Source: Escherichia coli (GTDB lineage Bacteria; Pseudomonadota; Gammaproteobacteria; Enterobacterales; Enterobacteriaceae). From it: a stretch of 64,000 nt of DNA. The first letter of the stretch is position 1. Every line of letters begins with the position of its first letter. Shown here in pieces: positions 2,513 through 38,027 of this stretch. The DNA lies in the NCBI RefSeq assembly GCF_051903065.1, contig NZ_CP178438.1; one strand, 5' to 3'. Position numbers and translations under genes: made by a program. A model generated the notes under the pieces. The model searched no databases, was not told where the DNA came from, and was given only the letters and a program-made list of their open reading frames with translations.

Positions 2513-3971
2513 ACTTCACGGAATATTTCGCCACGGTCGCTTTCGCACCATGCGCTAATAAAAACAAGTACGCTTCCGTCACTTTTGCAGTAAACAAGCT
2601 ATTGTCTGGCAAATCATCACCAAAGATCGCCTTAATCGCCAGCAATGACTGGACGCGCGCTTTCCCTTCGGCACTACTTTGTACAGCCTTCTGAATAACA
2701 GGTAACAGTGGGTCACTGATTTCAATCGGATTTCCCTGTTCATCAACACCACCGACATAACGCATCCAACCCGCGACGCCCAGCGCCAGCAGATCGAACT
2801 TGCTGTCATGCGCCAGATGCCAGCGAACAGAATCCAACATCCGCTGTGGCAATTTCTGGCTGCCATCCATCGCAATCTGCCAGGTTCGATGGCGTAACGC
2901 CGGGTTGCTATAGCGTGCAATTAATCGGTTAGCGTAATCTTGCAAATCAACGCCCTGCACTTTCAGCGTCGGCGCTTGTTCCTGCAACATCAAGCCATAC
3001 GCCGCATGACGATAATGTTCATCTTCCATACAGTCATTAATGTGCTGATATCCGGCAAGATAACCCAGATACGCCAGGAATGAATGACTGCCGTTGAGCA
3101 TGCGCAACTTCATCTCTTCATAAGGCAGTACATCGCTAACCAGTTCTGCTCCCGCTTTTTCCCATTCCGGACGTCCGGCAACAAAATTATCTTCGATTAC
3201 CCACTGGCGGAAAGGTTCACAGGCAACGCCAGCAGGATCGCGCACACCGGTAAGTTGTTCGATTTTCGCCAGCGTATCCTCTGTCACTGCGGGCACAATA
3301 CGGTCCACCATTGTTGATGGGAAAGTCACGTTATCTTCGATCCATTGTGCCAGTTTTACATCAACGGCTTGCGCGTAGGAAGTGACAACGTCACGCATAA
3401 CATGACCGTTTTCTGGCATGTTGTCACATGACATGACGGTAAATGCGGGAAGTCCTGCCGCTTTACGGCGAGCCAGCGCCTCAACAATCACCCCTGTTGC
3501 TGTTTTCGGCTGGTGGGGATTTTGCACGTCGGCAACGACCATCGGGTGATCGAGCATTAACTGTCCGGTCGCCGGAGAGTGGAAATACCCTTTTTCGGTG
3601 ATTGTCAGAGAGACAATCGCGATTTGTGGTTCACACATCGCAGCCAACACGGTTTCTAAGCCATCTATCTGTACGTGCAAGGCTTTTTTAACGACGCCAA
3701 CGACGCGAGCCGTCCACGCATCGGCCGACATTTCCGCAACGGTATAAAGATTATCTTGCTGTTGTAAATCGGCAATTTGCTGTTCGCCACCGATTAAGTT
3801 GACCTCATAATATCCCCAGTCACTGAAATGTTCTGTAGCAAGAATATCGGCATACACGCCCTGATGCGCACGGTGAAATGCACCAAAGCCTAAATGAACA
3901 ATTCTTGGGGCCAGGTTATTACGATCATAAACAGGGAGTGTCGCTTTTGCTGATAACAAATTATTTCCCAT
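2511..3971 (-). CDS. ydfI: mannitol dehydrogenase-family oxidoreductase (mannonate/altronate oxidoreductase-like)
   Basis: 486-aa ORF; family assignment from overall similarity to UxuB-type proteins by memory. Confidence 0.85.
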
Positions 3972-4059
3972 AACAATTCCTTAAATTTAAATATGGCAAG
4001 CTACATGTTTTGTTATATGAAGAAAAATCCCCTCTCCGGTAAGAGAAGGGATTGAGGAT

Positions 4060-5343
4060 TTAAAGACTTCTGGAAGGTTGCGCAGCTCTTACAACACGCG
4101 GTTGATCTTCCGCAGCGTCTTCCAGCGCACTTAAATCACGGTCTTTCACTTCTGGCATTTTCAGCGCAGAGATTAAACCAATCACTGAATATGCCATGAT
4201 CATAATGGCGATTGGATACCAGGATTCCGTCATGGTGCAGAAAATACCCGCCAGGATAGGACCAAAACCGGAAGCGATAAGACCACCAATTTCTTTAGAA
4301 ATAGCCATCCGGGTAAAGCGGTTTTTACAGCCGAACATTTCTGCCATGGTAATGTTTTCCAGAGCAAATAATCCCAGCACCGCACAGTTATGAATCACAA
4401 TCAGTGCAACCATAATGGTGCTCGGGGCATAGCTTTTATCTACGATGATAGAAAGCATTGGCCATGCCAGCACAATCGCGGAGGTATTCATAATAATATA
4501 CGGGATCCGGCGACCAATTTTATCGGATAACCAACCAAGGAACGGAATGGTCATAAAGCCGAGAATCGAACTAATCATCAATGCATCTGTTGGAATTGCT
4601 TTGTTAAACAATAACGTCTGCACTAAATAGCCTGCAAGGAAAGTCTGAATTAACCCGGAGTTACCCGCCTGACCAAAACGCAGCCCTGTTGCCAGCCAGA
4701 AGGATTTGCTCTGGAACATGCTACCAGCAGGTGCAGGTTTTGCTGTCGGTTGGTTGCTGTCGTTAACCTTCTCAAAGACCGGGCTTTCTTTCAGATTCAT
4801 ACGCAACCAGATAGCAAAGACCATCACGACAACGCTCGCCAGGAACGGTATACGCCATCCCCACGCCAGCAGTTCCTCTTTACTGAGAATGAAGAACATA
4901 AAGGCCCAGATTGCCGTTGCGCTTAAGGTTCCGCAGTTAGTTCCCATAGCCACAAATGAGGAGATAATTCCGCGCTTACCTTTTGGCGCATATTCCGCCA
5001 GCATCGTACCGGCACCGGAAATTTCCGCACCTGCACCCAACCCCTGAATAATACGCAGCGTCACCAGCAAGATGGGTGCAAAAACACCAATCTGTGCATA
5101 GGTCGGTAACACACCAATTAAGGTGGTACAGATCCCCATCATGGTGATGGTAATAAAGAGCACTTTTTTACGCCCTATTCTGTCGCCCATTTTGCCGAAA
5201 ATAAATGCTCCGACAATACGCGCCACATAACCTGCACCGTAGGTTCCCATTGCCAGAATTAACGCCATTGCCGTTGATGATTCAGGAAAAAATATTTCAT
5301 GAAACACTAACGCTGCGCCGAGTGAATATAACTGGAAATCCAT
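4060..5343 (-). pseudogene. ydfJ: MFS transporter YdfJ (ProP-like), 3' portion; first ~28 codons displaced to 34966-35058 by prophage insertion
   Basis: 427-aa ORF starts MDFQLYSLGAALVF...; upstream N-terminal codons are found at the other prophage end; att core overlaps the ATG. Confidence 0.8.
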
Positions 5344-5345
5344 AA
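5335..5345. repeat. att core copy at left prophage junction (attL-like)
   Basis: GAAATCCATAA identical to 34966-34976; lies at the ydfJ fragment junction. Confidence 0.7.
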
Positions 5346-5946
5346 TTCACAGGTGTTTTTTCCCATCCTGTGGTTTCCTTGGCGTTTTCTAGGTTTTTTC
5401 AGATAGTTGCATTTTTTAAAAAGCATCCTAAGTTCGATCTCAGTGTCTATCTGGGGCCTATTTCTGTCCCATATATGCCCCAAAAAAACTCCCCAACAGA
5501 TAAGTAGTTTTTTCATGGATTTATGCGTAAAATCAAGAACGGCTGGAAATCATTCAATACTCACACTATCGAAAAATTTACCAGCCAACCGCAGCACGTT
5601 CTTGCATAAGGCGTGTCTGCGTTTTTTCAACTATTCAGATACATCACTCCCATCACAGTCATTCCTCCGCATCAAAGGCATATAGGCTATATCACCTTGA
5701 TATTTTTCTTTTTCAGATAAAAACTGTTATCTATGTATACTTTTAAACCCAATCCGTGTAGAGTCTCTGCATAAGATAGTTTGCAGTTGCCGCTTCAGCT
5801 TGCGCCATAAACCGCCTGATTTTTGCTGCCACCTGCTAGCATTCCTGTATACCTGAAACGACAATGTTTATCTACGAACTTTAAAAACACCCAAGATAAA
5901 AATTGTCAACTATATCATATATAACACATTACTAATTCGAGGCTAT

Positions 5947-7367: not shown

Positions 7368-7943
7368 CTACGGCAGTGCTGGCCATTCAATATCCTGTGC
7401 AGTTGACGTATCAACACGGTTCAGCAATACCCGATACTTTTTCCATGCTTCCAGCAACGAGATTTCTTCCTCCGTTGCAATTTCCAGATCTGCAGCATCC
7501 TGAAGCGGCGCAATATGCTCACTGGCTACCTGCATCAGGTTGTTTTTTGTTTCTTCCGCCTCCCGGATCCGGAACAGTTTTTCTGCTTCCGTATCCTTCA
7601 CCCAGGCTGTGCCGTTCCACTTCTGAAACTCCCCTTCCGGCGATAACCAGGTAACATTTTCCGGTAACGGACCGAGTTCAGAAATAAATAACGCGTCGCC
7701 GGAAGCCACGTCATAGACGGTTTTTCCCCGATGATCTTCAACGAGATGCCACGATGCCTCATCACTGTTGAAAACAGCCACGAAGCCTGCCGGAATATCT
7801 GGCGGTGCAATATCGGTACTGTTTGCTGGCAGACCTGTATGAGGCGGAATATATGCGTCACCTTCACCAATAAATTCATTAGTTCCGGCCAGCAGATTAT
7901 AAATTTTTATGGTCTGTGGTTGTTCACTCATTCTGAATGCCAT
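7368..7943 (-). CDS. tfaQ: tail fibre assembly protein
   Basis: 191-aa ORF immediately downstream of tail fibre gene; Tfa-family organisation. Confidence 0.85.
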
Positions 7944-9127
7944 TATGCAAGCCTCACAATATAGTTAAATGCGATGTTTTTGACGGTGTTTTCCGCGTTA
8001 CCAGCAGCGTTAACGGTGATGGTGTGTCCATGTGAACCAATCGCAACGGAGTGCGTATGAGCACCAATACCGACAGTATGTGCATGTGCGCCTGCGCTTG
8101 CAGCAGTGCCGGACAGCGAGTGGGTATGAGCACCATCTGATGATGTCTTCCCTGCATTACGAGTCTGGCCACTACCGCTTGTTGTGCTCATAATCCCCGC
8201 GCTTAGATTTGAAATCGCGGTATAACCATTAGGGAAAATGCTCGTGTTCGTGCCACCAAATGCACCGGAACTCTTGTGTTGGTGCGCACCGGCACTATTT
8301 GCAGTCCCGCTAATACTATGGGTATGCGCCCCGGTGTTATTCGTGGATTTGGTTCCGTAATCAAACGACGATGTGTTTTTCGTCCCCAAATCCGTACTGG
8401 ATGCGCTGGCGCTGTGGGTGTGCGATTTAATGCCGTCCTGTTCCTGAGACAATACGGCACGACCACTGGCGGGTTTGCCCTTAATCGTCCAGCCACGCAT
8501 ATCAGGGATCACGGCTGACGGATAAGCGGCTGCAAGTTTCGGGTATGCAGATTTGTCAAAAGTCTGCCCCTGCATCAGGGCATAGCCAGACGGAACGGTA
8601 TCTGATGGCCACGGGATTGGTGCGCCAGGCGGATAAAACTGCTCTGATGGCGTATAGAGTGAATAAACTGTACCGTCCGTTAACCCTTCCGGCTTATTAG
8701 CAGAATATGCTGGTGACGTATGAATCGTCACGCTGGCATTACTGGTATAATCCCATTGAATATTTACACCAGTCGCATAATTTCCGATTGCAACGTAAAT
8801 ATCGTAAGTATCACCAGATGTATTGACCCAGGCAAAATTTGTAAACCCTGTCGATGTGCGCTGCCATAAAGCACCAGTAATCCCCTTCGGATTACCATTA
8901 CCTGCACGCAAAACAAGTTCAGATATACCTGCCTGTTGAGGTGACCCCACGTTAAATCCCGCGCCACCAATCAACGTAATTGAAACAACAGAACTCGCCT
9001 GTGGCATGGTTACCGTTGCTAATTTGAACCAACCAGCACCACCGCTGAATGACATTGTTGTTGAGTTAAGCGTACCAATATCTTTCGGCGTCAGTGTTAT
9101 ATCCGCTGAAAGCGCCTTACCATTCAC
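7943..9127 (-). pseudogene. stfQ: side tail fibre protein fragment (C-terminal part lambda Stf-like with His-rich GAHxHS repeats); N-terminal/constant region absent
   Basis: 394-aa ORF; C-terminus ...GAPIPWPSD...GAHTHS...[18 protein letters not shown] resembles lambda Stf C-terminus; in-frame TGA immediately 5' of ATG and IS903 32 bp upstream. Confidence 0.75.
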
Positions 9128-9159
9128 CTTACGGGCAGAAGGTACCCGACCATTCGCAT

Positions 9160-10216
9160 GGCTTTGTTGAATAAATCGAACTTTTGCTGAGTTGAAGGAT
9201 CAGATCACGTATCTTCCCGACAACGCAGACCGTTCCGTGGCAAAGCAAAAGTTCAAAATCACCAACTGGCCCACCTACAATAAAGCCCTCATCAACCGTG
9301 GCTCCATAACTTTCTGGCTGGATGATGAAGCTATTCAGGCCTGGTATGAGTCAGCAACACCTTCTTCACGAGGCAGACCTCAGCGCTATTCTGACCTTGC
9401 CATCACGACTGTGCTGGTCATTAAACGCGTATTCAGGCTGACCCTGCGCGCTGCGCAGGGCTTTATTGATTCCATTTTTTCTCTGATGAACGTTCCGCTA
9501 CGCTGCCCGGATTACAGCTGTGTCAGCAGGCGGGCAAAGTCGGTTAATGTCAGTTTCAAAACGCCCACCCGGGGTGAAATCGCACACCTGGTAATTGATT
9601 CCACCGGGCTGAAGGTCTTCGGTGAAGGCGAGTGGAAAGTCAAAAAGCATGGCCAGGAACGCCGCCGTATCTGGCGTAAGCTGCATCTCGCCGTTGACAG
9701 TAAAACACATGAAATCATCTGCGCTGACCTGTCGCTGAACAACGTTACGGACTCAGAGGCCTTCCCCGGGTTAATCCGGCAAACCCACCGGAAAATCAGG
9801 TCAGCCGCCGCCGATGGCGCTTACGATACCCGGCTATGTCACGATGAACTGCGGCGTAAGAAAATCAGCGCGCTTATCCCTCCCCGAAAAGGTGCGGGTT
9901 ACTGGCCCGGTGAATATGCAGACCGTAACCGTGCAGTGGCTAATCAGCGAATGACCGGGAGTAATGCGCGGTGGAAATGGACAACAGATTACAACCGTCG
10001 CTCGATAGCGGAAACGGCGATGTACCGGGTAAAACAGCTGTTCGGGGGTTCACTGACACTGCGTGACTACGATGGTCAGGTTGCAGAGGCTATGGCCCTG
10101 GTACGAGCGCTGAACAAAATGACGAAAGCAGGTATGCCTGAAAGCGTGCGTATTGCCTGAAAACACAACCCGCTACGGGGGAGACTTACCCGAAATCTGA
10201 TTTATTCAACAAAGCC
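9160..10216 (+). mobile_element. IS903-like insertion sequence (IS5 family), 1057 bp
   Basis: 18-bp terminal inverted repeats GGCTTTGTTGAATAAATC at 9160-9177 and 10199-10216 (reverse complement); single transposase ORF; no 9-bp target duplication. Confidence 0.85.
9192..10160 (+). CDS. IS903-type DDE transposase
   Basis: 322-aa [55 protein letters not shown]...; recognised as IS903/IS102-type by memory. Confidence 0.85.
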
Positions 10217-11317
10217 TTTATGACCTAAAAGAAGTTCGACAATATAAGGATCCGCCCCCATATCATTAAGCGTAGTGGAAAATGTGCGCCTGAAATCATG
10301 TATGCACCACAAGCCATTAGTATCATGACCAAGACACCTGCATATTCTGTTTGCAGCCCCTGTTATTGTCGCCCTTTGCAAAGCACAACCGACAACATAA
10401 CCGCGATTTTTTGTTTCTGCGTAAAGATTAACGATCCATTGTTTTATTCCGTCAGGAACAGGCCTTACTATAGCCTCCTTGTTTTTGCTGTGCTCTTTTG
10501 GGACTGTCCATACCCAGTTTTTTAAATCCCATTCGTCCCAGGTGGATAGCCTCGCCTCCTGCTGTCGGCAACCAAACACCAGGCAGATAACCATTATTCT
10601 TCGGTTATATATTGATGACAGAGTTAGCAAATTATTACCGTAAGCATAAGACCATACATCAGCGGTTTCATTGATATTAAGAACGCGATCCCTTATACCG
10701 GATGAGCGCCCGACATAACTTACGTTAATATCTCCAAAGGGATCGCACGCGATGTATTGCCTGACGCGACAAAAACGCAACGCCTGTTTGATATCAAGAA
10801 AAATTGCACCAGACATAACAGGCGCATTTTTTTTGATCCTGTCAAAGACGGTAAGCCATGTGTGTAATTTGCACTGTTCTATAGCCATATCACCGATATA
10901 GGGGAAGATATGCTTTTCAAATCGTTTTATTAAATATTCATGCTCTTTTCTGGCTGTTGTGGCGTGATTGTCGTACCAGTAAAACAGCGCATCCCTTACG
11001 GTCACTGGTTGCATAGTTTTTTCGGCAGCAAGTTTTATTTGCCTGCGGGGGTCCAGATTTTCAGCCAGCCATTCACGGCACTGATCACGCATGCGCCTGG
11101 CCGTTGCAAGAGACATGTCAGGATAGCGACCAAGTGTAAGCCATACCGGAGGGGATTCCCTGCCACCAAGACGATAGTAAAAAACAAAGCTGATCCCCCC
11201 AACCATGCTTACACGCACAGACAACCCGCGCCCATCCGCTATTGTTTTTTGTTTGTCCTGCCGTTTTCCGACAAGACTCTTTAACAGTTTGTCACTGAGT
11301 TTGTTTTCAATAGCCAT
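10202..11317 (-). pseudogene. P4-family tyrosine integrase, C-terminally truncated by IS903 (catalytic Tyr region missing)
   Basis: 371-aa ORF with HDFRRT and LLGH core motifs; reading frame ends FVE-stop inside the IS903 inverted repeat. Confidence 0.75.
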
Positions 11318-11335
11318 TAAAAGCCCTCAAGAGAT

Positions 11336-11389
11336 TTGCAATACACACCCATCCCGATCGCCAATTTGCAATACACATTGCAATACACA
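11336..11389. repeat. three direct copies of 12-bp motif TTGCAATACACA upstream of integrase start
   Basis: Copies at 11336-11347, 11366-11377, 11378-11389; 19-72 bp upstream of the int ATG (minus strand). Confidence 0.7.
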
Positions 11390-11465
11390 AAACCGCGAAA
11401 AACTGGAAGGGTGATGAACGGTCATCAAAAGCATGGAAAACGACATTCCAGACGCAGCAAGGGTT

Positions 11466-14446
<2,981 letters not shown>

Positions 14447-25796: not shown

Positions 25797-27110
25797 TCAA
25801 TCTTTTTTATCGGGATCAGGCTTCTTTTTAGGTAACTTCGGGGGCTTAACTTGCTGATGACTTTGCGTTCGGCGCGTAAGCCAGGGATGGTCAGCTTTAG
25901 GTTTAACATAGTATTTTGAGCGTAAATCAATACGGGCATTATCCACTCGTTCATGGACACTCTTTTCATCATCCGGTGGTATAGGCTCCGGGCCATCAAC
26001 ATACTTTTCCCAGCCCAGCGCTTTCCCGTCATACAGAACGTTAATTTCACCGTCAAAGTTCTCGCATACAGTAACAACCGAATGCCTAAGTCGATATCCC
26101 CGGCCCTCACTGCGTACCTGAAACGCACTGCTTTTGTACTGGAAAGTGAGATTTTTAGACAGAACGCGCTTCGCCTGTAGGCTGAAGATATAACCCAGTT
26201 CCTCTTCAGAATGGTGCACATCAAGATGAGCATTATCAGTAGTACGAGGCGACGTAGCGAACCGGTTGTTATAGGCTTCAATAAAGGTCGGCAACCATGC
26301 ATTTGCTGTTTCAATATCACTGATATTCTGAAGCCGCATTTCTTTGACCAGCCTGTCCTGTAGTGTCTGATTGGCGCGCTCTACCCGCCCTTTTGCCTGC
26401 GGGCTGTTGGCATGGATTGGCTCGATGCCCAGTGTCTTTATCGCACGAGTGAACTGGGTCAGCTCACCTTCCCGCTCTGGGTTATTTACCCTGAATATAC
26501 TGTGTCTATCAGAGTAGAGAGCGAGCGGTACGCCATGATCATTAAGGTAACCCCGGAGGGTTTCCATGTAAGCCCGGGTTGTTTCAGCAGGCACAAAACG
26601 CAACGCCATCAACGCACTGGTGGCATCATCAATGAAAACGATCAGTGTACATCTGGGGCCTCGATTTTCAAACCAGTCATGAGATGAGCCATCAATCTGG
26701 ATCAGTTCACCGTAAGATGGTCGTCGCATGCGGCGTTGATATATACGGGCAATTTTACGACGGCGTTCACGCCATAACCCCTCTTCTATCATCCACTTTC
26801 TGAGAGTTTCAACGGATAAAGATAAACCGTGTATCTCGCGCAATTTTTCGCACGCAAACGTAGGTCCAAAATCAGCGTAACGGCCTTTGAGGAGTGAAAT
26901 TACTGTTGCTCTGAATTCAGTAGAAAAGGAATTATTAGGACGCTTTCCACGTCGGTGGGAAACCAGACCAGAAGGCCCTTCATTTCTATACCGTTGCACC
27001 AGACGTTTAACCTGCCGAATAGAAATGCCAATGCGTGCCGCAGCTTGTTCCTGAATAATCTGAAGTCGGTGGAGTTCCTTATGACTCATCGTAACAGTCT
27101 CTTTGATCAT
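25797..27110 (-). CDS. DDE transposase/integrase with N-terminal HTH and rve (retroviral-integrase-type) core; IS481/ISNCY-like, family not confirmed
   Basis: 437-aa ORF; motifs ...IQIDGSSHDWF..., ...VFIDDATS..., ...HANSPQAKGRVERANQTLQDRL...; element ends not identified. Confidence 0.7.
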   Translation of the reverse strand: MIKETVTMSHKELHRLQIIQEQAAARIGISIRQVKRLVQRYRNEGPSGLVSHRRGKRPNNSFSTEFRATVISLLKGRYADFGPTFACEKLREIHGLSLSVETLRKWMIEEGLWRERRRKIARIYQRRMRRPSYGELIQIDGSSHDWFENRGPRCTLIVFIDDATSALMALRFVPAETTRAYMETLRGYLNDHGVPLALYSDRHSIFRVNNPEREGELTQFTRAIKTLGIEPIHANSPQAKGRVERANQTLQDRLVKEMRLQNISDIETANAWLPTFIEAYNNRFATSPRTTDNAHLDVHHSEEELGYIFSLQAKRVLSKNLTFQYKSSAFQVRSEGRGYRLRHSVVTVCENFDGEINVLYDGKALGWEKYVDGPEPIPPDDEKSVHERVDNARIDLRSKYYVKPKADHPWLTRRTQSHQQVKPPKLPKKKPDPDKKD

Positions 27111-27444
27111 GAAAAATCCCCCAGAGAATTGTCTGGGGACATTTTAGAATGGTTCAAAGGGGACATTACAGCTTGGTGTTAACAATAGCCTGCTTCTCCG
27201 TGCCTTTCGGCACGTAAGAGGCTAACCTACATGTGTCTAGCATGAAATTGGCCTCAGATTAATGTTAAGCGTCTTGCAGGACGCGTAATGTTAACTGGGG
27301 CTTTTCTCTATCTGCCGTTGGTGTCCATGCCCGAGGCAGATAGCCTCAAGCACCCGCAGTCATTCTACTTAACTAAGATTTCCCCGCAAACCGTTTTTGT
27401 CCAGCACAGTAAATATCCAACTAAACCAATGGAGTTCGCTGTAT

Positions 27445-29592: not shown

Positions 29593-30558
29593 TTATCCTC
29601 TGAAACCAGGCGGAATTTCTGTATCCGGTTCAGAAATATGATTAACACAACGCTGTACAGGTGAACGTCCCAGGCGGATGACCAGTTCGTCCCATTTTTC
29701 GAGGAGCTTTGACGGGCTCATGATGTTTTTTACCCAGAATGGATCTCGCTGAACCCGACCAAACATTTCGCAAATTTGTCTGTGGCTTCTGCCATCCAGC
29801 ATCCGCATTGTGCGCACGTCATTGGCCCAGGCAGTCCAGTTAGGCTCTTTTGGTCGCATGATCTCGCCATCATCACTGGCTGCCTGTTCGTAGAGACCCA
29901 CGATCCGCCCCCAGATCCACTGCGCACACGCCAAATCCTCCCTGCTACCCCACTGGCGTTTTTTCGCACTAAACACAACCGCGTCGGAGTTCCGGGTTAA
30001 AAAATCCTGTTCAGTCGTCTGCGGGTCCGGTTGCGAAGCTTCCGGACGAAAAGTGTTTTTATTCTCTGTAGTAATCTCTGTTGTATTCTCTGTAAGATCA
30101 TCAGGCCATTTTGACCCGATGACATTGGGTCGTTTTGAACCAATGGAGCGTTTCATTTTGACCTCTTCCATCGTGTCATTTTGACCTGATGGAGCGGCGC
30201 ATTTTGAACCGATGGATTCGCTCAATTTGCCACCATCTAAAAGCTCGCTCCCATAGTTGATCGTGTAGAAATTGGTCATATCGCGCTTTGATTTATTGAG
30301 CTTTTCACAACGCAAAAGCCCCAGCGTTTTCAGACTTGCAAACGCGCGCTTTAACGTTGACTCTGACCAGAATGGGAACTGTTCCAGCCATTGTTCCGTT
30401 GTGTTATAAATCCAGCGAACACCATCACATTCCATGCCGGAGTTGGTATCTCTCAACCAGTAGTGCAGTTGTTGCAAAACAATGGCTTCGTTTAAGCCAA
30501 TTTTCATTGCCAGCTGCGTGTTTATAACCAGTGGGCGTTCAGCAAAAAGAAGGCTCAT
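29593..30558 (-). CDS. lambda O-like replication initiation protein
   Basis: ORF 29593-30612 (start probably Met at 30558); C-terminal region ...WANDVRTMRMLDGRSHRQICEMFG... resembles lambda gpO; iterons inside gene. Confidence 0.75.
   Translation of the reverse strand: MSLLFAERPLVINTQLAMKIGLNEAIVLQQLHYWLRDTNSGMECDGVRWIYNTTEQWLEQFPFWSESTLKRAFASLKTLGLLRCEKLNKSKRDMTNFYTINYGSELLDGGKLSESIGSKCAAPSGQNDTMEEVKMKRSIGSKRPNVIGSKWPDDLTENTTEITTENKNTFRPEASQPDPQTTEQDFLTRNSDAVVFSAKKRQWGSREDLACAQWIWGRIVGLYEQAASDDGEIMRPKEPNWTAWANDVRTMRMLDGRSHRQICEMFGRVQRDPFWVKNIMSPSKLLEKWDELVIRLGRSPVQRCVNHISEPDTEIPPGFRG
30105..30240. repeat. iteron array (5-6 copies, ~23-24 bp period) inside O-like gene: candidate replication origin
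   Basis: Repeated CATTTTGACC/CGTTTTGAACC...GATGGA units at ~30107, 30131, 30154, 30177, 30201, 30224; flanked by AT-rich TCTCTGT repeats. Confidence 0.7.
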
Positions 30559-31060
30559 AATTCCATCCAGCTTTTTGTTGGTATTGCTGTCGATACGCAA
30601 GTTTGAAAGCAATTGCTTTTTCTATAAGTTCGTCAGTTTCACGATCCACTACGGCAGGATCAGCAAAAAGCAGTCCGGACTCCACCACATCGCCATATTC
30701 TTTGTTTAACCCGGCGATCATGCACGTGATGCTTTTTCCGTCAGTAATTTCACGATACAACCTGAAATCATTAATCCGGATAGCCTCCATAATTGCAGGC
30801 ACTAGCGCCGTGAACTTTTCACGCTTATCCCTGGTGTCGATAGCCTTCCAGCGTTCAAATATCTTCACTCGATTAACGCCAAGCGCTCGCTGATCAATCG
30901 CGCCACCTTCATATGTGACACGCTGAACATCGATGTTCGGGCGCTCTTTCAAAGCCCAGAATGCTTCAGTGATTAATATCGTCGCCTGCTCCTGTGTCAT
31001 TCCTGGTCGACATATCCAGGCATCCAGAGCCTCACGAGCCTGTTCAGGAGTGATTTTCAT
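30539..31060 (-). CDS. YdaT-like protein (cII-position regulator analog)
   Basis: 173-aa ORF downstream of cro-like dicC; ...DKREKFTALVPAIMEAI... resembles Rac YdaT by memory. Confidence 0.55.
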   Translation of the reverse strand: MKITPEQAREALDAWICRPGMTQEQATILITEAFWALKERPNIDVQRVTYEGGAIDQRALGVNRVKIFERWKAIDTRDKREKFTALVPAIMEAIRINDFRLYREITDGKSITCMIAGLNKEYGDVVESGLLFADPAVVDRETDELIEKAIAFKLAYRQQYQQKAGWNYEPSFC

Positions 31061-31274
31061 TGTTCAACCGCCCCGCCCGCTTCGTCTTACGATATTCATC
31101 ATAAACTTTGGGATCATACTGAAGCTCCCCGCCAGATGCCTCCTGTAGACGCATCGCGCGACCTTCGGGAACTAAATCCCCTTTCCAGCTATAAAGCGAA
31201 GCCAAACGAATACCTGCTGCTTGTGCAAGTTTTGTTTTTGAACCGAAATACAAAAGAGCGTCAGTTTTAAGCAT
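31044..31274 (-). CDS. dicC: Cro-like repressor DicC
   Basis: 76-aa ORF MLKTDALLYFGSKTKLAQAAGIRLASLYSWKG...; divergent from dicA. Confidence 0.85.
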   Translation of the reverse strand: MLKTDALLYFGSKTKLAQAAGIRLASLYSWKGDLVPEGRAMRLQEASGGELQYDPKVYDEYRKTKRAGRLNNENHS

Positions 31275-31357
31275 TTAAAACACCTTTATTGTTAGCCATA
31301 ACTAACAAGATAGATGTTAACAAAAACATAGTCAATACGATTTAGCATTAGCTAACT

Positions 31358-31765
31358 ATGGAAACAAAAAATTTAACTATCGGCGAACGCATCAGGTATC
31401 GTCGGAAAAACCTCAAACACACCCAAAGGTCTCTTGCTAAAGCCCTGAAAATCTCCCATGTGTCTGTATCACAATGGGAACGGGGTGATAGTGAACCTAC
31501 AGGGAAGAACCTTTTTGCCCTCAGCAAAGTATTGCAATGCTCACCAACATGGATTCTATTTGGCGATGAAGACAAGCAACCAACACCACCTGTTGAGAAG
31601 CCAGTTGCCTTATCCCCCAAAGAACTAGAGCTCCTTGAGCTGTTTAATGCACTGCCAGAATCAGAACAGGATACCCAGCTCGCCGAAATGCGAGCTCGAG
31701 TAAAAAACTTCAATAAACTCTTTGAAGAATTACTAAAAGCCCGTCAGCGGACAAATAAAAGATAA
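31358..31765 (+). CDS. dicA: CI-like repressor DicA (HTH_XRE)
   Basis: 135-aa ORF METKNLTIGERIRYRRKNLKHTQRSLAKALKISHVSVSQWERG... Confidence 0.9.
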   Translation: METKNLTIGERIRYRRKNLKHTQRSLAKALKISHVSVSQWERGDSEPTGKNLFALSKVLQCSPTWILFGDEDKQPTPPVEKPVALSPKELELLELFNALPESEQDTQLAEMRARVKNFNKLFEELLKARQRTNKR

Positions 31766-31931
31766 CATCATCAATGAGTTATCTTTTACCACATCAATTA
31801 TGTTAGCTATAGCATACAAAATCACTTGACCGATATGTTAGTCATGGCTAATCTTGTTTGCATCAACACACCGCACGGTGTTCTCAGCAAACAGTTCCGC
31901 TACCCCAGCGTTAAGGGGAAATGAGGTCAGC

Positions 31932-32087
31932 ATGGATACTATCGATCTTGGCAACAACGAATCTCTGGTGTACGGCGTGTTTCCAAACCAGGACGGCACG
32001 TTCACCGCAATGACGTATACCAAAAGCAAAACGTTTAAAACCGAAAATGGTGCCCGTCGCTGGCTGGAAAGAAACTCAGGTGAGTGA
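31932..32087 (+). CDS. ydfA: small prophage protein YdfA
   Basis: ORF 31854-32087; likely start MDTIDLGNNESLVYGVFPNQDG... Confidence 0.7.
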   Translation: MDTIDLGNNESLVYGVFPNQDGTFTAMTYTKSKTFKTENGARRWLERNSGE

Positions 32088-32088
32088 T

Positions 32089-32217
32089 ATGGATTTCGAC
32101 ACAATCATGGAAAAGGCTTACGAAGAATACTTCGAAGGCCTTGCCGAAGGCGAAGAAGCTCTCAGCTTCAGTGAGTTTAAACAGGCGCTTTCCAGTTCGG
32201 CAAAATCTAACGGCTGA
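32089..32217 (+). CDS. ydfB: small prophage protein YdfB (42 aa)
   Basis: Hand translation MDFDTIMEKAYEEYFEGLAEGEEALSFSEFKQALSSSAKSNG. Confidence 0.7.
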   Translation: MDFDTIMEKAYEEYFEGLAEGEEALSFSEFKQALSSSAKSNG

Positions 32218-32246
32218 TAAGCGAAACAGCACCGCGAGGAATCAGT

Positions 32247-32465
32247 ATGCAGAAACGAGAACCCGTCATCATCGCGCCAGACTATACCGATGATGAACTT
32301 TATGAGTGGATGCGCCAGAAAATTAATGCAGCGCAGGATCTGAAATGGGCTAATGAAGCCAGGGCTAAGCAGGCTGAAAATCTGTCCGCTCTGGAGCAGG
32401 ATATCACCAATCTGGAAAAAGCAGCGGCATTAAGCATTGCCAGAATGATTACATACCCGCGTTAG
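32247..32465 (+). CDS. ydfC: small prophage protein YdfC
   Basis: 72-aa ORF MQKREPVIIAPDYTDDELYEWMRQKINAAQDLK... Confidence 0.8.
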   Translation: MQKREPVIIAPDYTDDELYEWMRQKINAAQDLKWANEARAKQAENLSALEQDITNLEKAAALSIARMITYPR

Positions 32466-32805
32466 TAGCTAATCAACAAAGCTAAGGTTAGTAATTAAGG
32501 AGTTCTCCACGGGTGAGGTGGAGTGCGTGCGCCGGACACGGGTGCGCATCCGGAACTGACAGTTTACTGAAAGGATATTTCCCTGAAAAGTCAGACCATA
32601 ACGCGAAAGCGCACGGCGAGGTAGCTGGTTCATAGATAGCCTGTCGTTAAATTTTCATCGACCGTGCGCTTCCGGTTGTGGCAACCCGCGAAATGGCGCG
32701 GCGGTAAGTATGGCGGGGTTATTCCTTCCCCGTTGAGGACACCGGGTTGTCAGGTTGACCATACGCTTAAGTGACAACCCCGCTGCAACGCCCTCTGTTA
32801 TCAAT

Positions 32806-32863
32806 TTTCTGGTGACGTTTGGCGGTATCAGTTTTACTCCGTGACTGCTCTGCCGCCCTTTTT
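32806..32863 (+). ncRNA. dicF: DicF small regulatory RNA (ftsZ-targeting)
   Basis: TTTCTGGTGACGTTTGGCGGTATCAGTTTTACTCCGTGACTGCTCTGCCGCCCTTTTT matches remembered DicF with intrinsic terminator; ends approximate. Confidence 0.8.
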
Positions 32864-33032
32864 AAAGTGAATTTTGTGATGTGGTGAATGCGGCTGAGCG
32901 CACGCGGAACAGTTAAAACCAAAAACAGTGTTATGGGTGGATTCTCTGTATCCGGCGTTAATTGTTAACTGGTTAACGTCACCTGGAGGCACCAGGCACT
33001 GCATCACAAAATTCATTGTTGAGGACGCGATA

Positions 33033-33056
33033 ATGAAAACGTTATTACCAAACGTT
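33033..33056 (+). pseudogene. dicB: dicB (cell-division inhibitor) first 8 codons only; interrupted by IS1
   Basis: ATG AAA ACG TTA TTA CCA AAC GTT (MKTLLPNV) then IS1 left end at 33057. Confidence 0.75.
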
Positions 33057-33071
33057 GGTAATGACTCCAAC

Positions 33072-33575
33072 TTATTGATAGTGTTTTATGTTCAGATAAT
33101 GCCCGATGACTTTGTCATGCAGCTCCACCGATTTTGAGAACGACAGCGACTTCCGTCCCAGCCGTGCCAGGTGCTGCCTCAGATTCAGGTTATGCCGCTC
33201 AATTCGCTGCGTATATCGCTTGCTGATTACGTGCAGCTTTCCCTTCAGGCGGGATTCATACAGCGGACAGCCATCCGTCATCCATATCACCACGTCAAAG
33301 GGTGACAGCAGGCTCATAAGACGCCCCAGCGTCGCCATAGTGCGTTCACCGAATACGTGCGCAACAACCGTCTTCCGGAGCCTGTCATACGCGTAAAACA
33401 GCCAGCGCTGGCGCGATTTAGCCCCGACATAGCCCCACTGTTCGTCCATTTCCGCGCAGACGATGACGTCACTGCCCGGCTGTATGCGCGAGGTTACCGA
33501 CTGCGGCCTGAGTTTTTTAAGTGACGTAAAATCGTGTTGAGGCCAACGCCCATAATGCGGGCTGTTGCCCGGCAT
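33072..33575 (-). CDS. insB: IS1 InsB (expressed as InsAB' by frameshift)
   Basis: 167-aa ORF overlapping insA 3' end. Confidence 0.9.
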
Positions 33576-33769
33576 CCAACGCCATTCATGGCCATATCAA
33601 TGATTTTCTGGTGCGTACCGGGTTGAGAAGCGGTGTAAGTGAACTGCAGTTGCCATGTTTTACGGCAGTGAGAGCAGAGATAGCGCTGATGTCCGGCGGT
33701 GCTTTTGCCGTTACGCACCACCCCGTCAGTAGCTGAACAGGAGGGACAGCTGATAGAAACAGAAGCCAC
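33494..33769 (-). CDS. insA: IS1 InsA
   Basis: 91-aa [46 protein letters not shown]... Confidence 0.9.
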
Positions 33770-33824
33770 TGGAGCACCTCAAAAACACCATCATACACTA
33801 AATCAGTAAGTTGGCAGCATCACC

Positions 33825-34928
33825 GCAAAACAGTTTCCCTCCTCACGCAATCTGGAAAAATTTGGTGAGGCCCGACAAGATTTAACCATAAAAGAACTGG
33901 CTGAAAAATTTCTGGCACTGAAAGAAACTGAAGTCGCCAAAACATCACTCAACACATACCGTGCCGTCATCAAAAATATCCTAAGCATAATCGGTGAAAA
34001 AAATCTTGCCTCATCGATTAATAAAGAAAAATTACTGGAGGTTCGTAAAGAGCTACTGACTGGATACCAGATCCCCAAAAGTAACTATATTGTTACACAA
34101 CCAGGGAGATCGGCTGTAACTGTAAATAATTACATGACAAATCTTAACGCCGTGTTCCAGTTTGGTGTTGATAACGGTTACCTGGCAGATAATCCGTTTA
34201 AGGGGATCTCGCCATTAAAGGAATCAAGAACCATTCCGGATCCTCTTTCGCGGGAGGAATTTATCCGTCTTATCGATGCGTGCAGAAATCAGCAAGCAAA
34301 AAATTTATGGTGTGTTTCTGTTTATACTGGCGTTCGCCCTGGTGAGCTGTGTGCACTTGGATGGGAGGACATAGATCTGAAAAATGGAACAATGATGATC
34401 AGGAGAAATTTAGCAAAAGACCGTTTCACGGTACCAAAAACACAGGCGGGAACCAATCGGGTCATTCATCTTATTAAGCCAGCAATCGACGCTCTCCGGA
34501 GTCAGATGACATTAACGAGACTGAGCAAAGAGCATATCATTGATGTTCACCTCAGAGAGTATGGCAGAACAGAAAAACAAAAATGCACCTTTGTTTTTCA
34601 ACCTGAAGTATCAGCGAGAGTAAAAAATTATGGTGACCATTTTACCGTTGACTCAATAAGGCAGATGTGGGACGCAGCGATAAAACGTGCCGGACTCCGC
34701 CATCGAAAATCATATCAGTCGAGACATACTTATGCCTGCTGGTCGCTGACTGCTGGTGCTAACCCGGCATTTATAGCAAACCAGATGGGCCATGCAGATG
34801 CGCAAATGGTATTTCAGGTATACGGAAAATGGATGTCTGAAAACAATAATGCACAGGTAGCTTTGTTAAATACACAGTTAAGCGAGTTTGCCCCAACCAT
34901 ACCCCATAACGAAGCAATGAAAAATTAA
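33825..34928 (+). pseudogene. intQ: lambda-type tyrosine integrase lacking its N-terminus (5' end replaced by IS1)
   Basis: Frame open from IS1 junction to 34928; C-terminal ...HTYACWSLTAGANPAFIANQMGHADAQMVFQVYGKW... (His/Tyr catalytic region); adjacent to att core. Confidence 0.75.
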
Positions 34929-34965
34929 TTTAATATTTATCAAATAGTTGACACGTATGACTCTT

Positions 34966-34976
34966 GAAATCCATAA
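34966..34976. repeat. att core copy at right prophage junction (attR-like)
   Basis: GAAATCCATAA identical to 5335-5345. Confidence 0.7.
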
Positions 34977-35058
34977 ATTCAAGCGCAGTGCCCAGCCATC
35001 CCGATACTGCTGCTTTCACCAAATCCTTAGTGCTTCTTTCGTGTTTTTCTATTGTCAT
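34966..35058 (-). pseudogene. ydfJ: ydfJ 5' fragment (first ~28 codons) separated from rest of gene by prophage
   Basis: Minus strand from ATG 35056-35058: MTIEKHERSTKDLVKAAVSGWLGTALEF then MDF entering the att core. Confidence 0.7.
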
Positions 35059-35115
35059 AATGGTTATCTCTAAAAAAGAGGTAAGATGCGTACTACTTAC
35101 TCGCCGTTATTGGTA

Positions 35116-36135
35116 TTATTCAGAAAAAGTGAGTAAGACTTTGCAGCAATGTTTTTGATCCTGTTCAAATAAACTAATGGCATCAGCAACATGCTGGAAA
35201 TCAAACGTATGGGTAATTAATTTTTCTGGTTTAATTAACCCTTTACTTAACCAGTCGATAACGACCGGAAATTTATTTGCATTTAAGCGTGAAGAGAAAA
35301 TAGAGAGTTCTTTTCCGGTAATTCCTTGCTGAATCACTTCAGACGGTTCACTGGAGAAGCCCATCAATACAATACGTGCCGCTGGAGAAGCCAGCGTTAC
35401 GGCCTCTTTCAGGATAGAAGGATGACAAGCCGCATCAATAATTAATGTCGGCTTTATGCCTTTTTCAGCGAAAATCTCGCCAAGCGGTGTCTGGCTGTTA
35501 TTAATCACCCAGTCAGCCCCGCTCTCTTTCGCTTTTTCCAGTCGTTCATCAATGCGATCGGCAACAATCACATTTTTAACGTTATAGACGCCTTTTAATA
35601 CCTGAACGATCGTCAGGCCGATTGGACCGGCACCATAAACCAGAACGGTATCATTTTCAGTCGGTTGACCATGTCCGGTTACGTTAGCCGCAATGGTAAA
35701 AGGTTCGATCATCACCGCATATTGATCGGCCACTGCTTCAGGAATTTTCCACGCATTTTTTGCCGGAACCACAGCATATTCACTGAAACCACCGTCAACA
35801 TGCACACCTAATACAGCGAGTGTCGTACAAACGTTCGGCTTACCTATAGAGCACGGATAGCAATGACCACAGCTGACCACCGGATCGACAGCAACACGTT
35901 CACCGACTCTGGCGCTTTCCACACCTTCACCCACCGCATCAATGACGCCAAAGAATTCATGTCCAATGACGCGCGGATATTTCGCAAAAGGATTATGCCC
36001 ACGATAAATATGGCTATCTGAACCACAAATTCCGGCAAGTTTTACTTTTACTCGAACTTCACCCGCTGACGGGGTGGGTATTTCACGTTCGATAATCGCC
36101 AGTTGATTCGGTTTTTCAATTAAAATGCTTTTCAT
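35116..36135 (-). CDS. rspB: starvation-sensing protein RspB (zinc alcohol dehydrogenase family)
   Basis: ORF 35116-36159; start at MKSILIEKPNQL...; GHEFFG and Cys ligand motifs. Confidence 0.9.
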   Translation of the reverse strand: MKSILIEKPNQLAIIEREIPTPSAGEVRVKVKLAGICGSDSHIYRGHNPFAKYPRVIGHEFFGVIDAVGEGVESARVGERVAVDPVVSCGHCYPCSIGKPNVCTTLAVLGVHVDGGFSEYAVVPAKNAWKIPEAVADQYAVMIEPFTIAANVTGHGQPTENDTVLVYGAGPIGLTIVQVLKGVYNVKNVIVADRIDERLEKAKESGADWVINNSQTPLGEIFAEKGIKPTLIIDAACHPSILKEAVTLASPAARIVLMGFSSEPSEVIQQGITGKELSIFSSRLNANKFPVVIDWLSKGLIKPEKLITHTFDFQHVADAISLFEQDQKHCCKVLLTFSE

Positions 36136-36146
36136 TAACTTACTCC

Positions 36147-37361
36147 TTACCAGTTCCACAGCGTGCCATCTTCCAGACGTGCGACTGGTAGATAAGCAGG
36201 TTCATAGGGATATTTCGCCGCCAGCTTTTCATCGAATTCGATACCAAGACCCGGTTTGTCTCCCGGATGCATATAGCCGTTATCGAAAGTCCAGTTGTGC
36301 GGGAAGACTTCGAGCATTTGTTCGGAATAACCCATGTATTCCTGGACACCGAAATTGGGGACCCACAGATCAAAGTGCAGCGCCGCAGCCATGCAGACTG
36401 GTGACAAATCGGAAGGACCGTGTGAGCCAGTACGTACCTGATACAACGAAGCAAAATCGGCAATCCGGCGCATACCGGTAATTCCGCCTGCATGGGTCAG
36501 CGTGGTGCGGATATAATCGATGAGTTGCTCTTCAATCAGTTGTTTGCAGTCCCAGATGCTGTTGAAGACTTCACCCACAGCGATGGGTGTGACGGTATGT
36601 TGGCGAATGAGACGGAAGCATTCCTGGTTTTCCGCAGGCGTCGGGTCTTCCATCCAGAACATGCGATAATCTTCAATGCTTTTACCAAAGCGCGCCGCTT
36701 CAATAGGCGTTAAGCGATGGTGCATGTCATGCAGCAAATGTTCATTAAAACCAAACTTGTTACGTACCGCGTCAAACAATTTCGGCATGAAATCGAGGTA
36801 TTTCTCCGTCGACCACAGCTGCTCTTCCGGCCACTGTCCTTTGGTTGCGGGTTCATAAGCCAGACCTTTACCTTTCGACATGCCGTAGGTGGTTTTCATA
36901 CCAGGGATTCCGCACTGCACGCGGATGGCTTTGAATCCCAGCTCCTGATGACGGGCATAATCATCCAGAGCTTCATCAATACTGTGACCGGTGGTATGGC
37001 AATAAACCATCACCCCTTCACGAGATGCGCCGCCGAGTAACTGGTAAAGCGGCATGTTGGCAGCTTTGGCTTTAATATCCCACAGCGCCATATCAACCGC
37101 TGAAATGGCCGACATCGTAACCGGACCGCGACGCCAGTAAGCACCTTTATAGAAAAACTGCCAGATATCTTCGATACGGTGCGCATCGCGACCAATAAGC
37201 TGCGGACAAAGGTGATCCTGCAAATAAGAGGCCACGGAAAGCTCACGTCCATTGAGGGTGGCATCCCCAAGGCCCGTAATACCGTCCTCAGTGGTGATTT
37301 TTAATGTGACGAAATTACGCCCCGGACAGGTAACAAAAACTTCAGCCTTTACGATCTTCAT
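36147..37361 (-). CDS. rspA: starvation-sensing protein RspA (mannonate dehydratase-like enolase superfamily)
   Basis: ORF 36147-37394; start at [17 protein letters not shown]... Confidence 0.9.
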
Positions 37362-37566
37362 GTTCGATTCCTTGCATCGCTTGTCGTGATGCATGAAATC
37401 TACGCAACTGAGCTACTACCATACAAGTATGAAGATCAAAAAAAGCCAGAGTGATCACAAAAAAAGGCGTATATTTGCGCTGTGAATGGTTGACAAAAGA
37501 TGAAATAGAATACCTTTTATCAGCTGACACTTCCTCGTATCTTATTGATAAAATGGATTTATGTTC

Positions 37567-37893
37567 CTACGTACGCCCCCAGCCCGCAACAATGATCAAC
37601 ATGCCGCAAAGCGCAATCAACGCCCCCGTCCAGTCATAAAGAGTCAGTTTCACGCCATCCACAACGCGCAGCCACATCAACGCCGTGCAGACATAAACGC
37701 CACCATAAGCCGCGTAAACACGCCCACTCGCCGCAGGATGCAACGTTAACAACCAGACAAACAGAGCCAGTGAAATCCCCGCCGGAAGCAACAGCCAGAT
37801 ACTGGCGTTTCGTTTTAACCACAACCAGGGCAGAAAGCATCCAATAATTTCACACAGCGCAGTAGCAAAAAATAGTAACGTTGTTTTAATCAT
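37567..37893 (-). CDS. ynfA: UPF0060 inner membrane protein YnfA
   Basis: ORF 37567-37902; start [18 protein letters not shown]... Confidence 0.85.
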
Positions 37894-38027
37894 CTTTGTC
37901 ACTTATTGACATCATGTATAGTTATAGGGCGACATAATATCATCAATATAAACACCCTCTTGGTACGTTTTGCGTCCGCAGTGGATGGTGTAGAATCACC
38001 TTTAATCATTCACACAGGGAATGAATT

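Follow-up and report, generated by a model that had tools for sequence, protein, structure and literature searches.

A dicF-retaining, dicB-truncated allele at an IS1 junction in a Qin-type cryptic prophage of Escherichia coli

In the stretch of Escherichia coli DNA analyzed here (64,000 nucleotides, hereafter the window), the gene for the small RNA DicF is followed by the first eight codons of dicB, an IS1 element and a fragment of a phage integrase. How did this arrangement arise, which genes were lost with it, and was the loss of dicB with retention of dicF a selected step or a part of prophage decay?

The dicBF region and its junction with IS1

The window holds a Qin-type cryptic prophage at the K-12 chromosomal position between ydfJ and rspB. 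We mapped the annotation of 23CRST027, a near-identical complete genome, onto the window. In this annotation the order is dicC (minus strand), dicA, ydfA, ydfB, ydfC, partial DicB, IS1A transposase (minus strand), partial tyrosine recombinase, rspB and rspA, and public records thus already list the components as partial genes (Table 1). The upstream genes of the dicBF operon, ydfA, ydfB and ydfC, together occupy positions 31932–32465. A gene for the antirepressor Rem is annotated in the corresponding part of the sister genome. Further IS-associated damage was seen in the same Qin-type prophage.

Table 1 Features of the dicBF region and of the adjoining prophage end in the window
Feature	Position	Strand	Evidence
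dicC (intact), coding for a Cro-like regulator in the Qin immunity region	31044–31274	−	Pfam P22_Cro; dicC annotated at the matching position of 23CRST027
dicA, repressor of the dicBF promoter, intact	31358–31765	+	Pfam HTH_3 and CI repressor; 23CRST027 annotation; 99.8% colinear with K-12
ydfA; ydfB; ydfC	31932–32087; 32089–32217; 32247–32465	+	Annotation of the sister genome; DUF1391 match for YdfA; K-12 colinearity
dicF small RNA, 53 nt	32806–32858	+	Rfam RF00039; exact K-12 match; fold
dicB remnant, codons 1–8 (MKTLLPNV)	33033–33056	+	Equals K-12 dicB nt 1–24; K-12 alignment stops at 33056
Chimeric reading frame, 8 dicB codons, 26 IS1 codons and stop	33033–33137	+	Translation
Left 9-bp flank CCAAACGTT	33048–33056	.	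Unlike right flank
Complete IS1A, 768 bp	33057–33824	−	Terminal repeats; Pfam; A6C motif; IS1A in 23CRST027 annotation
Right 9-bp flank GCAAAACAG	33825–33833	.	Unlike left flank
5′-truncated Qin integrase (intQ-type), codons 60–426 and stop, without start codon	33825–34928	+	K-12 intQ identity; alignment to E8 and TUM17668 integrases; Pfam
rspB, first chromosomal gene past the prophage end	35116–36135	−	23CRST027 annotation; K-12 colinearity

Upstream of the IS1, the window is nearly unchanged compared with K-12. Positions 30781–33056 correspond to positions 3358–5633 of the K-12 Qin locus (L004) with 99.8% identity. The four SNPs found in this stretch all lie before position 32658, i.e., none is found past 32657, and the SNP-free part between 32658 and 33056 spans the inferred 190-nt DicF precursor. 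An exact sequence search found all 53 nucleotides of K-12 dicF (53/53), and the covariance model Rfam RF00039 matched on the plus strand at 32807–32858 over its full length (model positions 1–52) with 76.7 bits, compared with a gathering score of 48. A stem-loop at 32821–32857 (GGCGG...CCGCC) is followed by the U-run UUUUU at 32859–32863. Moreover, dicF keeps its place in the K-12 order with dicC, dicA, ydfA, ydfB and ydfC all upstream. DicF is known to be processed to a 190-nt product by RNase III and to a 53-nt product by RNase E (10.1101/2023.04.14.536235). Judged from the sequence, all that DicF production needs would thus have been kept unchanged, i.e., dicA and dicC, the promoter region, ydfABC, the precursor region and the terminator.

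The dicB gene, in contrast to dicF, is a stump. Its ATG lies at 33033, its first eight codons are the same as in K-12 DicB, and K-12 colinearity ends right after codon 8. From there the frame enters IS1 for 26 codons up to a stop at 33137; we claim no function for the resulting 34-residue product. K-12 DicB matches the DicB domain (PF05358) across residues 1–62, of which residues 1–8 remain, and the domain is absent from the window. Searches with tblastn and blastn detected no second dicB or ydfD in the 64-kb window; the 24-nt dicB remnant was their sole match. On the whole chromosome of 23CRST031, another carrier of this junction, there is likewise a single dicF/dicB place.

The IS1 element itself is complete. 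Both terminal inverted repeats are present (GGTAATGACTCC... and GGTGATGCTGCC...), with IRR on the left, facing dicB, and IRL on the right, facing int. On the minus strand it carries insA (33494–33769) and the insB frame (33072–33575), with the A6C frameshift motif AAAAAAC at IS1 position 307, and the Pfam domains Zn_ribbon_InsA, HTH_Tnp_IS1 and DDE_Tnp_IS1 were found. Compared with IS1A copies of other strains, 766–767 of 768 bases are identical. The 9-bp target-site duplication of IS1 is not present, the left flank reading CCAAACGTT and the right flank GCAAAACAG. We read such unequal flanks as the signature of a later rearrangement; they are no argument against the identity of the element. 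The end coordinate 33833 in the initial annotation corresponds to the IS1 end plus the 9-bp right flank.

Beyond the IS1, K-12 colinearity resumes, and window positions 33825–38000 correspond to L004 positions 7606–11781, with 98.85% identity in intQ. The integrase fragment is open for 367 codons up to 34928, and residues 142–333 of this 367-residue fragment match the catalytic domain Phage_integrase (PF00589, E = 2.8e-18). Relative to the 426-aa integrases of strains E8 and TUM17668, it lacks the first 59 of 426 codons (177 nt). A complete integrase with start codon and N-terminal region was hence not found, and xis is absent too.

These results bear out in full what the initial annotation had described at this locus, i.e., DicF RNA and its terminator as intact, the eight codons MKTLLPNV as those of dicB running straight into IS1, and the IS1 flanks as different and without target duplication. 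It had also described the sequence beyond IS1 as an in-frame integrase fragment. The fragment is there and open, but that it is in frame makes no difference, as this frame is closed by stops within IS1.

Extent of the missing interval

Alignment to the K-12 dicB–intQ region, as had been suggested with the initial annotation, was colinear up to dicB codon 8 and resumed in intQ at 33825. K-12 colinearity thus breaks exactly at both IS1 ends, and since kilobases of near-identity with K-12 end at these two points, the junction is not a chance arrangement. K-12 was rejected as a model of the ancestral layout because an IS2-associated deletion of its own lies there. What K-12 has as ydfE is the remnant of a 2.47-kb exonuclease gene that IS2E has interrupted, and its intQ is truncated at the 5′ end.

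In intact relatives, dicB is followed by ydfD, a 2,472-nt gene for a 3′-5′ exonuclease, xis, the 426-codon integrase and rspB. We measured the size of the deletion against strain TUM17668, which has the layout dicB-ydfD-exo-[IS1 with TSD GAGCAGTTA]-xisR-int-rspB. In this strain 4,230 bp separate the two window breakpoints, and subtraction of its own IS1 and 9-bp TSD (777 bp) leaves 3,453 bp, i.e., about 3,450 bp were lost. Strain E8 was tried as ancestor proxy for this sizing and dropped; it has its own IS1 without clean duplication, and its exonuclease gene is 5′-truncated.

The lost interval comprises dicB codons 9–62, ydfD (lysis protein), the 2.47-kb exonuclease gene, xis and int codons 1–59, and dicB codon 8 is now joined to integrase codon 60. 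The earlier proposal that the remainder of dicB and the genes downstream of it had been lost beside IS1 is confirmed by this comparison, but the K-12 ydfD–ydfE layout on which it drew is not the ancestral one. Taken together, an IS1-associated deletion at the right end of a Qin-type prophage very probably gave this dicF+ dicB-null allele.

Route of the deletion

IS1 junctions in other strains lie close to both breakpoints. In strains 23CRST022 and 22F46 a simple IS1 insertion is found in dicB, 2 bp from the window breakpoint and with a clean 9-bp duplication, TACCAAACG. As in the window, the element is IS1A in the same orientation, with dicF and ydfABC upstream. It differs from the window allele in its clean duplication and in retaining the remainder of dicB along with ydfD, exo, xis and int; moreover, it resides in another prophage (at potC) with another immunity region and another attachment site. 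At the integrase, strain a7 has the junction IS1B|ATGCAAAACAG 2 bp upstream of the window's int breakpoint, and its left flank adjoins ydfK. This ydfK-IS1B-'int junction is likewise an IS-bounded deletion that removed the N-terminus of the same integrase and arose independently, but it involves IS1B and another left endpoint and is larger, with nearly the whole prophage gone. As IS1 has thus formed junctions independently, in unrelated backgrounds, at a distance of 2 bp from either breakpoint, we conclude that both are sites of the kind chosen by the IS1 transposase. Breakpoints at IS1 targets fit adjacent deletion or IS–IS recombination and argue against a random, transposase-independent deletion.

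IS1 has inserted repeatedly in the dicB–int interval elsewhere, i.e., in strains E8, TUM17668, 33-6/58-3, 94EC, FORC_031 and PEC422. An apparent bias of these copies toward the same orientation was discarded as an ascertainment effect, the search joining pieces on one strand only. No precursor, i.e., no IS1 with matching duplication at either breakpoint, came up when 5,426 complete E. coli genomes were queried for the junctions; the queries returned only the allele of 23CRST027 and 23CRST031 and the 2-bp-offset junctions in 23CRST022/22F46 and a7. Also, exact searches of metagenome contigs for the predicted precursor junctions, GGCAGCATCACC+CCAAACGTTAATACG and CGACTATGCAAAACAG+GGTAATGACTCC, found none. 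The absence of a precursor from these collections does not exclude one.

Deletions without target duplication are typically explained by adjacent deletion or by IS–IS recombination (PMC11708052). In an adjacent deletion, a resident IS1 would transpose intramolecularly into another site of the molecule that carries it; a single IS1, now linked to this new target, would stay in the chromosome, and the sequence in between would be lost. IS1 is noted for frequent adjacent deletions, and IS1 deletions in the gal region are classic cases of IS-associated deletion without target duplication. On balance, we infer that the route was probably an IS1 adjacent deletion rather than recombination between two direct IS1 copies, because the former takes two events instead of three and because adjacent deletions are frequent with IS1.

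Recombination between two direct copies is nevertheless a serious possibility, if a less probable one. It would start from same-orientation IS1 copies in dicB (duplicating CCAAACGTT) and in int (duplicating GCAAAACAG), and RecA-dependent recombination would delete the interval together with one copy. The end product would be identical to the one observed, both sites are IS1 targets, as the independent junctions of other strains at 2 bp from them show, and IS1 recurs in the dicB–int interval of other strains. IS1 is also abundant in the sister genome, where a query including the whole element had 37 matching places. Against this route stand the third event that it requires and the searches described above, in which neither a genome with either single insertion nor one with both copies appeared among the 5,426, and no precursor junction among the metagenome contigs. 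No mosaic was seen in the window IS1, but IS1A copies differ by 1–2 of 768 bases and are too alike to reveal one. According to the initial annotation, IS1 itself had probably deleted the interval. Its placing of IS1 at the deletion junction holds, but an adjacent deletion by the element is indistinguishable in the sequence from recombination between two direct IS1 copies.

It is very unlikely that the deletion happened in one step, i.e., that the arrival of IS1 was coupled to it and neither site had harbored a copy before. For IS5 and IS481, one-step movements of this kind that leave no target duplication have been proposed (PMC11708052), and a one-step event agrees with the finding of no precursor in the complete genomes or the metagenome contigs. 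However, in the long-term evolution experiment all IS150 cases associated with a deletion were traced to adjacent deletions that had occurred stepwise (PMC11708052), and nothing in the present sequence specifically demands a single step.

The dicB'-IS1-'int double junction occurs in 2 of the 5,426 complete E. coli genomes, 23CRST027 and 23CRST031, both human faecal isolates from Ecuador. The window represents a third, distinct relative, lacking the IS903B that splits the gene for replication protein O in 23CRST027 and differing in the arrangement of its left end. IS1 is multicopy and repeats are the classic cause of misjoins, but an assembly artefact, in which a collapsed IS1 repeat misjoined dicB to int, has a practically negligible probability given that the junction is identical in two closed chromosomes and in the window, whose sequence departs from both at other places, and given flanks that are colinear with the expected prophage order. 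As three separate assemblies carry it, the junction is inherited in a small lineage of the two Ecuadorian isolates and the window strain.

Consequences, selection and relation to known systems

In an induced dicBF operon, deletion of dicB largely relieved growth inhibition and cells were not filamentous; deletion of dicF helped little. DicB is the more potent toxin of the operon, but overexpression of DicF alone is toxic as well (PMC5069750). Infection by phages that depend on ManYZ is likewise inhibited by DicB (10.1101/708461). In the window strain, DicF would still be made but DicB would not when DicA repression is lifted, either by the Rem antirepressor or by spontaneous derepression. Much less filamentation and killing would be expected on such derepression, and DicB-dependent inhibition of ManYZ or phage protection would be missing. 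Loss of xis and of the int 5′ end would moreover lock in an already defective prophage, with excision no longer possible.

Was the loss of DicB with retention of DicF selected, so that the host domesticated the small RNA and discarded the more toxic protein, and so that IS1 recurs at dicB codons 7–8 through selection and not through target preference? We consider this unlikely. In its favor, two independent IS1 hits lie 2 bp apart in dicB in different prophages, DicF and its whole upstream processing context are untouched, and it was the more potent toxin that was lost (PMC5069750). However, the int breakpoint shows the same 2-bp recurrence at a place where no toxicity argument applies, which points to IS1 target preference. 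IS1 prefers AT-rich targets, and the start of dicB fits this preference, with a G+C content of 33% around the left IS1 junction and of 40% across dicB–ydfD. Moreover, the intact dicF–dicB region is retained in 3,927 of 5,426 complete E. coli genomes (72%; 4,636 have the locus in some form), and the 5′ dicB junction has received only two independent IS1 hits (two lineages, four genomes). Since DicA normally keeps the operon repressed, dicB would cost the cell little. Other IS-associated damage in the same prophage and the recurrence of IS1 across the dicB–int interval in other strains also speak against selection. Some genomes have dicF without a K-12-like dicB after it, e.g., with matches over query positions 1–253 only.

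We therefore found no evidence of selection for dicB loss, and an adaptive value is unsupported. The initial annotation had spoken of the removal of a toxic function; this is apt as a description of the consequence, DicB being the more potent toxin (PMC5069750), but not as a statement on selection, in view of the many genomes with intact dicF–dicB. A more far-reaching proposal would be that IS1 has sequence-specific hot spots at dicB codons 7–8 and int codon 59, and that the recurrent IS1-driven loss of DicB, sparing DicF, was selected as a step in the domestication of the Qin immunity region. We think this quite improbable. If it were true, natural dicF+ dicB-null lineages would keep a host-regulating small RNA and shed the stronger toxin together with a phage-exclusion function.

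The window locus is ordinary IS-driven decay of a cryptic prophage, and its significance beyond annotation is small. It adds one more example of IS elements eroding the exo–xis–int end of Qin-type prophages and, with IS1 recurring at a distance of 2 bp from each of the two breakpoints, a minor observation on the target preference of IS1. A literature search found no described dicB::IS1 allele. A natural dicF+ dicB-null ydfD-null allele could serve to separate the effects of DicF from those of DicB on division, ManXYZ and phage entry.

Compared with the dicBF operon of K-12 Qin, the window has the same gene order and 99.8% identity from upstream of dicC through dicB codon 8, the same DicF (53/53) and the same chromosomal site beside rspB. 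In contrast to K-12, it lacks dicB codons 9–62 and ydfD and has IS1 after codon 8, whereas K-12 has the junction ydfE'-IS2E-'intQ further downstream. This K-12 junction is itself an independent IS-bounded deletion that removed the N-terminus of the same integrase, with its breakpoint 56 nt upstream of that in the window; it differs in the element, IS2, in its left endpoint and in the retention of dicB and ydfD. With the IS-associated deletions without TSD described earlier (PMC11708052), the window shares one IS copy at the junction, unmatched flanks and an interval missing compared with colinear relatives, but it offers no time series or precursor.

A further close counterpart is the engineered F+B− strain, Plac-ydfABC-dicF with dicB deleted (Balasubramanian et al. 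2016, PMC5069750), in which dicF is likewise present and dicB absent in the operon context. The window allele differs from it in being natural, in its native DicA-repressed promoter, in the additional lack of ydfD and in having IS1 in place of dicB where the engineered strain has an FRT scar. By analogy, the window strain, as a natural dicF+ dicB-null ydfD-null allele, would be expected to act like the F+B− strain.

IS1 insertions and integrase truncations between dicB and int

The dicB-ydfD-exo-xis-int interval of Qin-like prophages has repeatedly been a landing site for IS1 in unrelated strains, i.e., E8, TUM17668 and the strains of matches H41-H50 and H101-H106. These IS1 copies are a mixed set: some are flanked by a clean duplication (TUM17668), others lack one and come with a small deletion (E8). 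Within dicB, the target region (33040-33056) holds the hexamer ATTACC, which reads GGTAAT on the opposite strand, as do the six opening bases of the IS1 end. ATTACC directly adjoins both independent IS1 insertion points in the gene, that of the window and that of 23CRST022/22F46. Hot spots of IS1 have been described in older reports as looking like the element's own ends. Judged from sequence, ATTACC beside the dicB insertion points may bear on this resemblance. At the other end of the interval, the same integrase N-terminus has undergone three independent IS-bounded truncations, all at most 56 nt apart.

Features in the window and in comparison loci
Feature	Genome	Position	Strand	Details
IS1	TUM17668	L005 6333-7100		clean duplication GAGCAGTTA
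IS1	strain E8	L006 7510-8277		without clean duplication; small deletion; exonuclease 5'-truncated
Integrase truncation by IS2E	K-12 (intQ)	L004 7513-7606
Integrase truncation by IS1B	strain a7	L003 6768
Integrase truncation by IS1A	window	33825
IS903B, complete	window	9160-10216		1,057 bp; perfect 18-bp terminal repeats
sok antitoxin RNA match	window	27184-27355	-	Rfam, 104 bits
Replication-protein-O gene	window	29593-30612	-	uninterrupted

DicB start and dicF-dicB spacer

In the NCBI annotation of the sister genome 23CRST027, the truncated DicB starts at a GTG 105 nt 5' of the K-12 ATG (window 32928-33056, + strand; L001 6329-6457), which implies naming by a DicB model or variant of greater length. 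The dicF-dicB spacer (32870-33010, + strand) matched STnc100, a Salmonella sRNA candidate, in Rfam with 34.1 bits (E = 7e-5), below the gathering score of 47.

IS903B junction and sok match

The flanks of the window IS903B, CATTCGCAT vs TTTATGACC, do not match. One side is ydfJ-side chromosome and the other, as judged from 23CRST027, the integrase-gene interior of a satellite-like element of about 9 kb; in 23CRST027 itself, both of the two IS903B copies have clean 9-bp duplications. The window junction looks like a second IS-bounded deletion. The sok match directly adjoins an ISNCY-type transposase ORF (25797-27110, - strand). It is probably a hok/sok remnant distinct from the annotated hokD, since no Hok-like ORF was found among the listed reading frames.

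Relation to 23CRST027

In 23CRST027, IS903B splits the replication-protein-O gene (duplication CCAGAATGG), whereas the gene is unbroken in the window. The window strain is hence a distinct relative, and the dicB-int deletion is older than that IS903B insertion.
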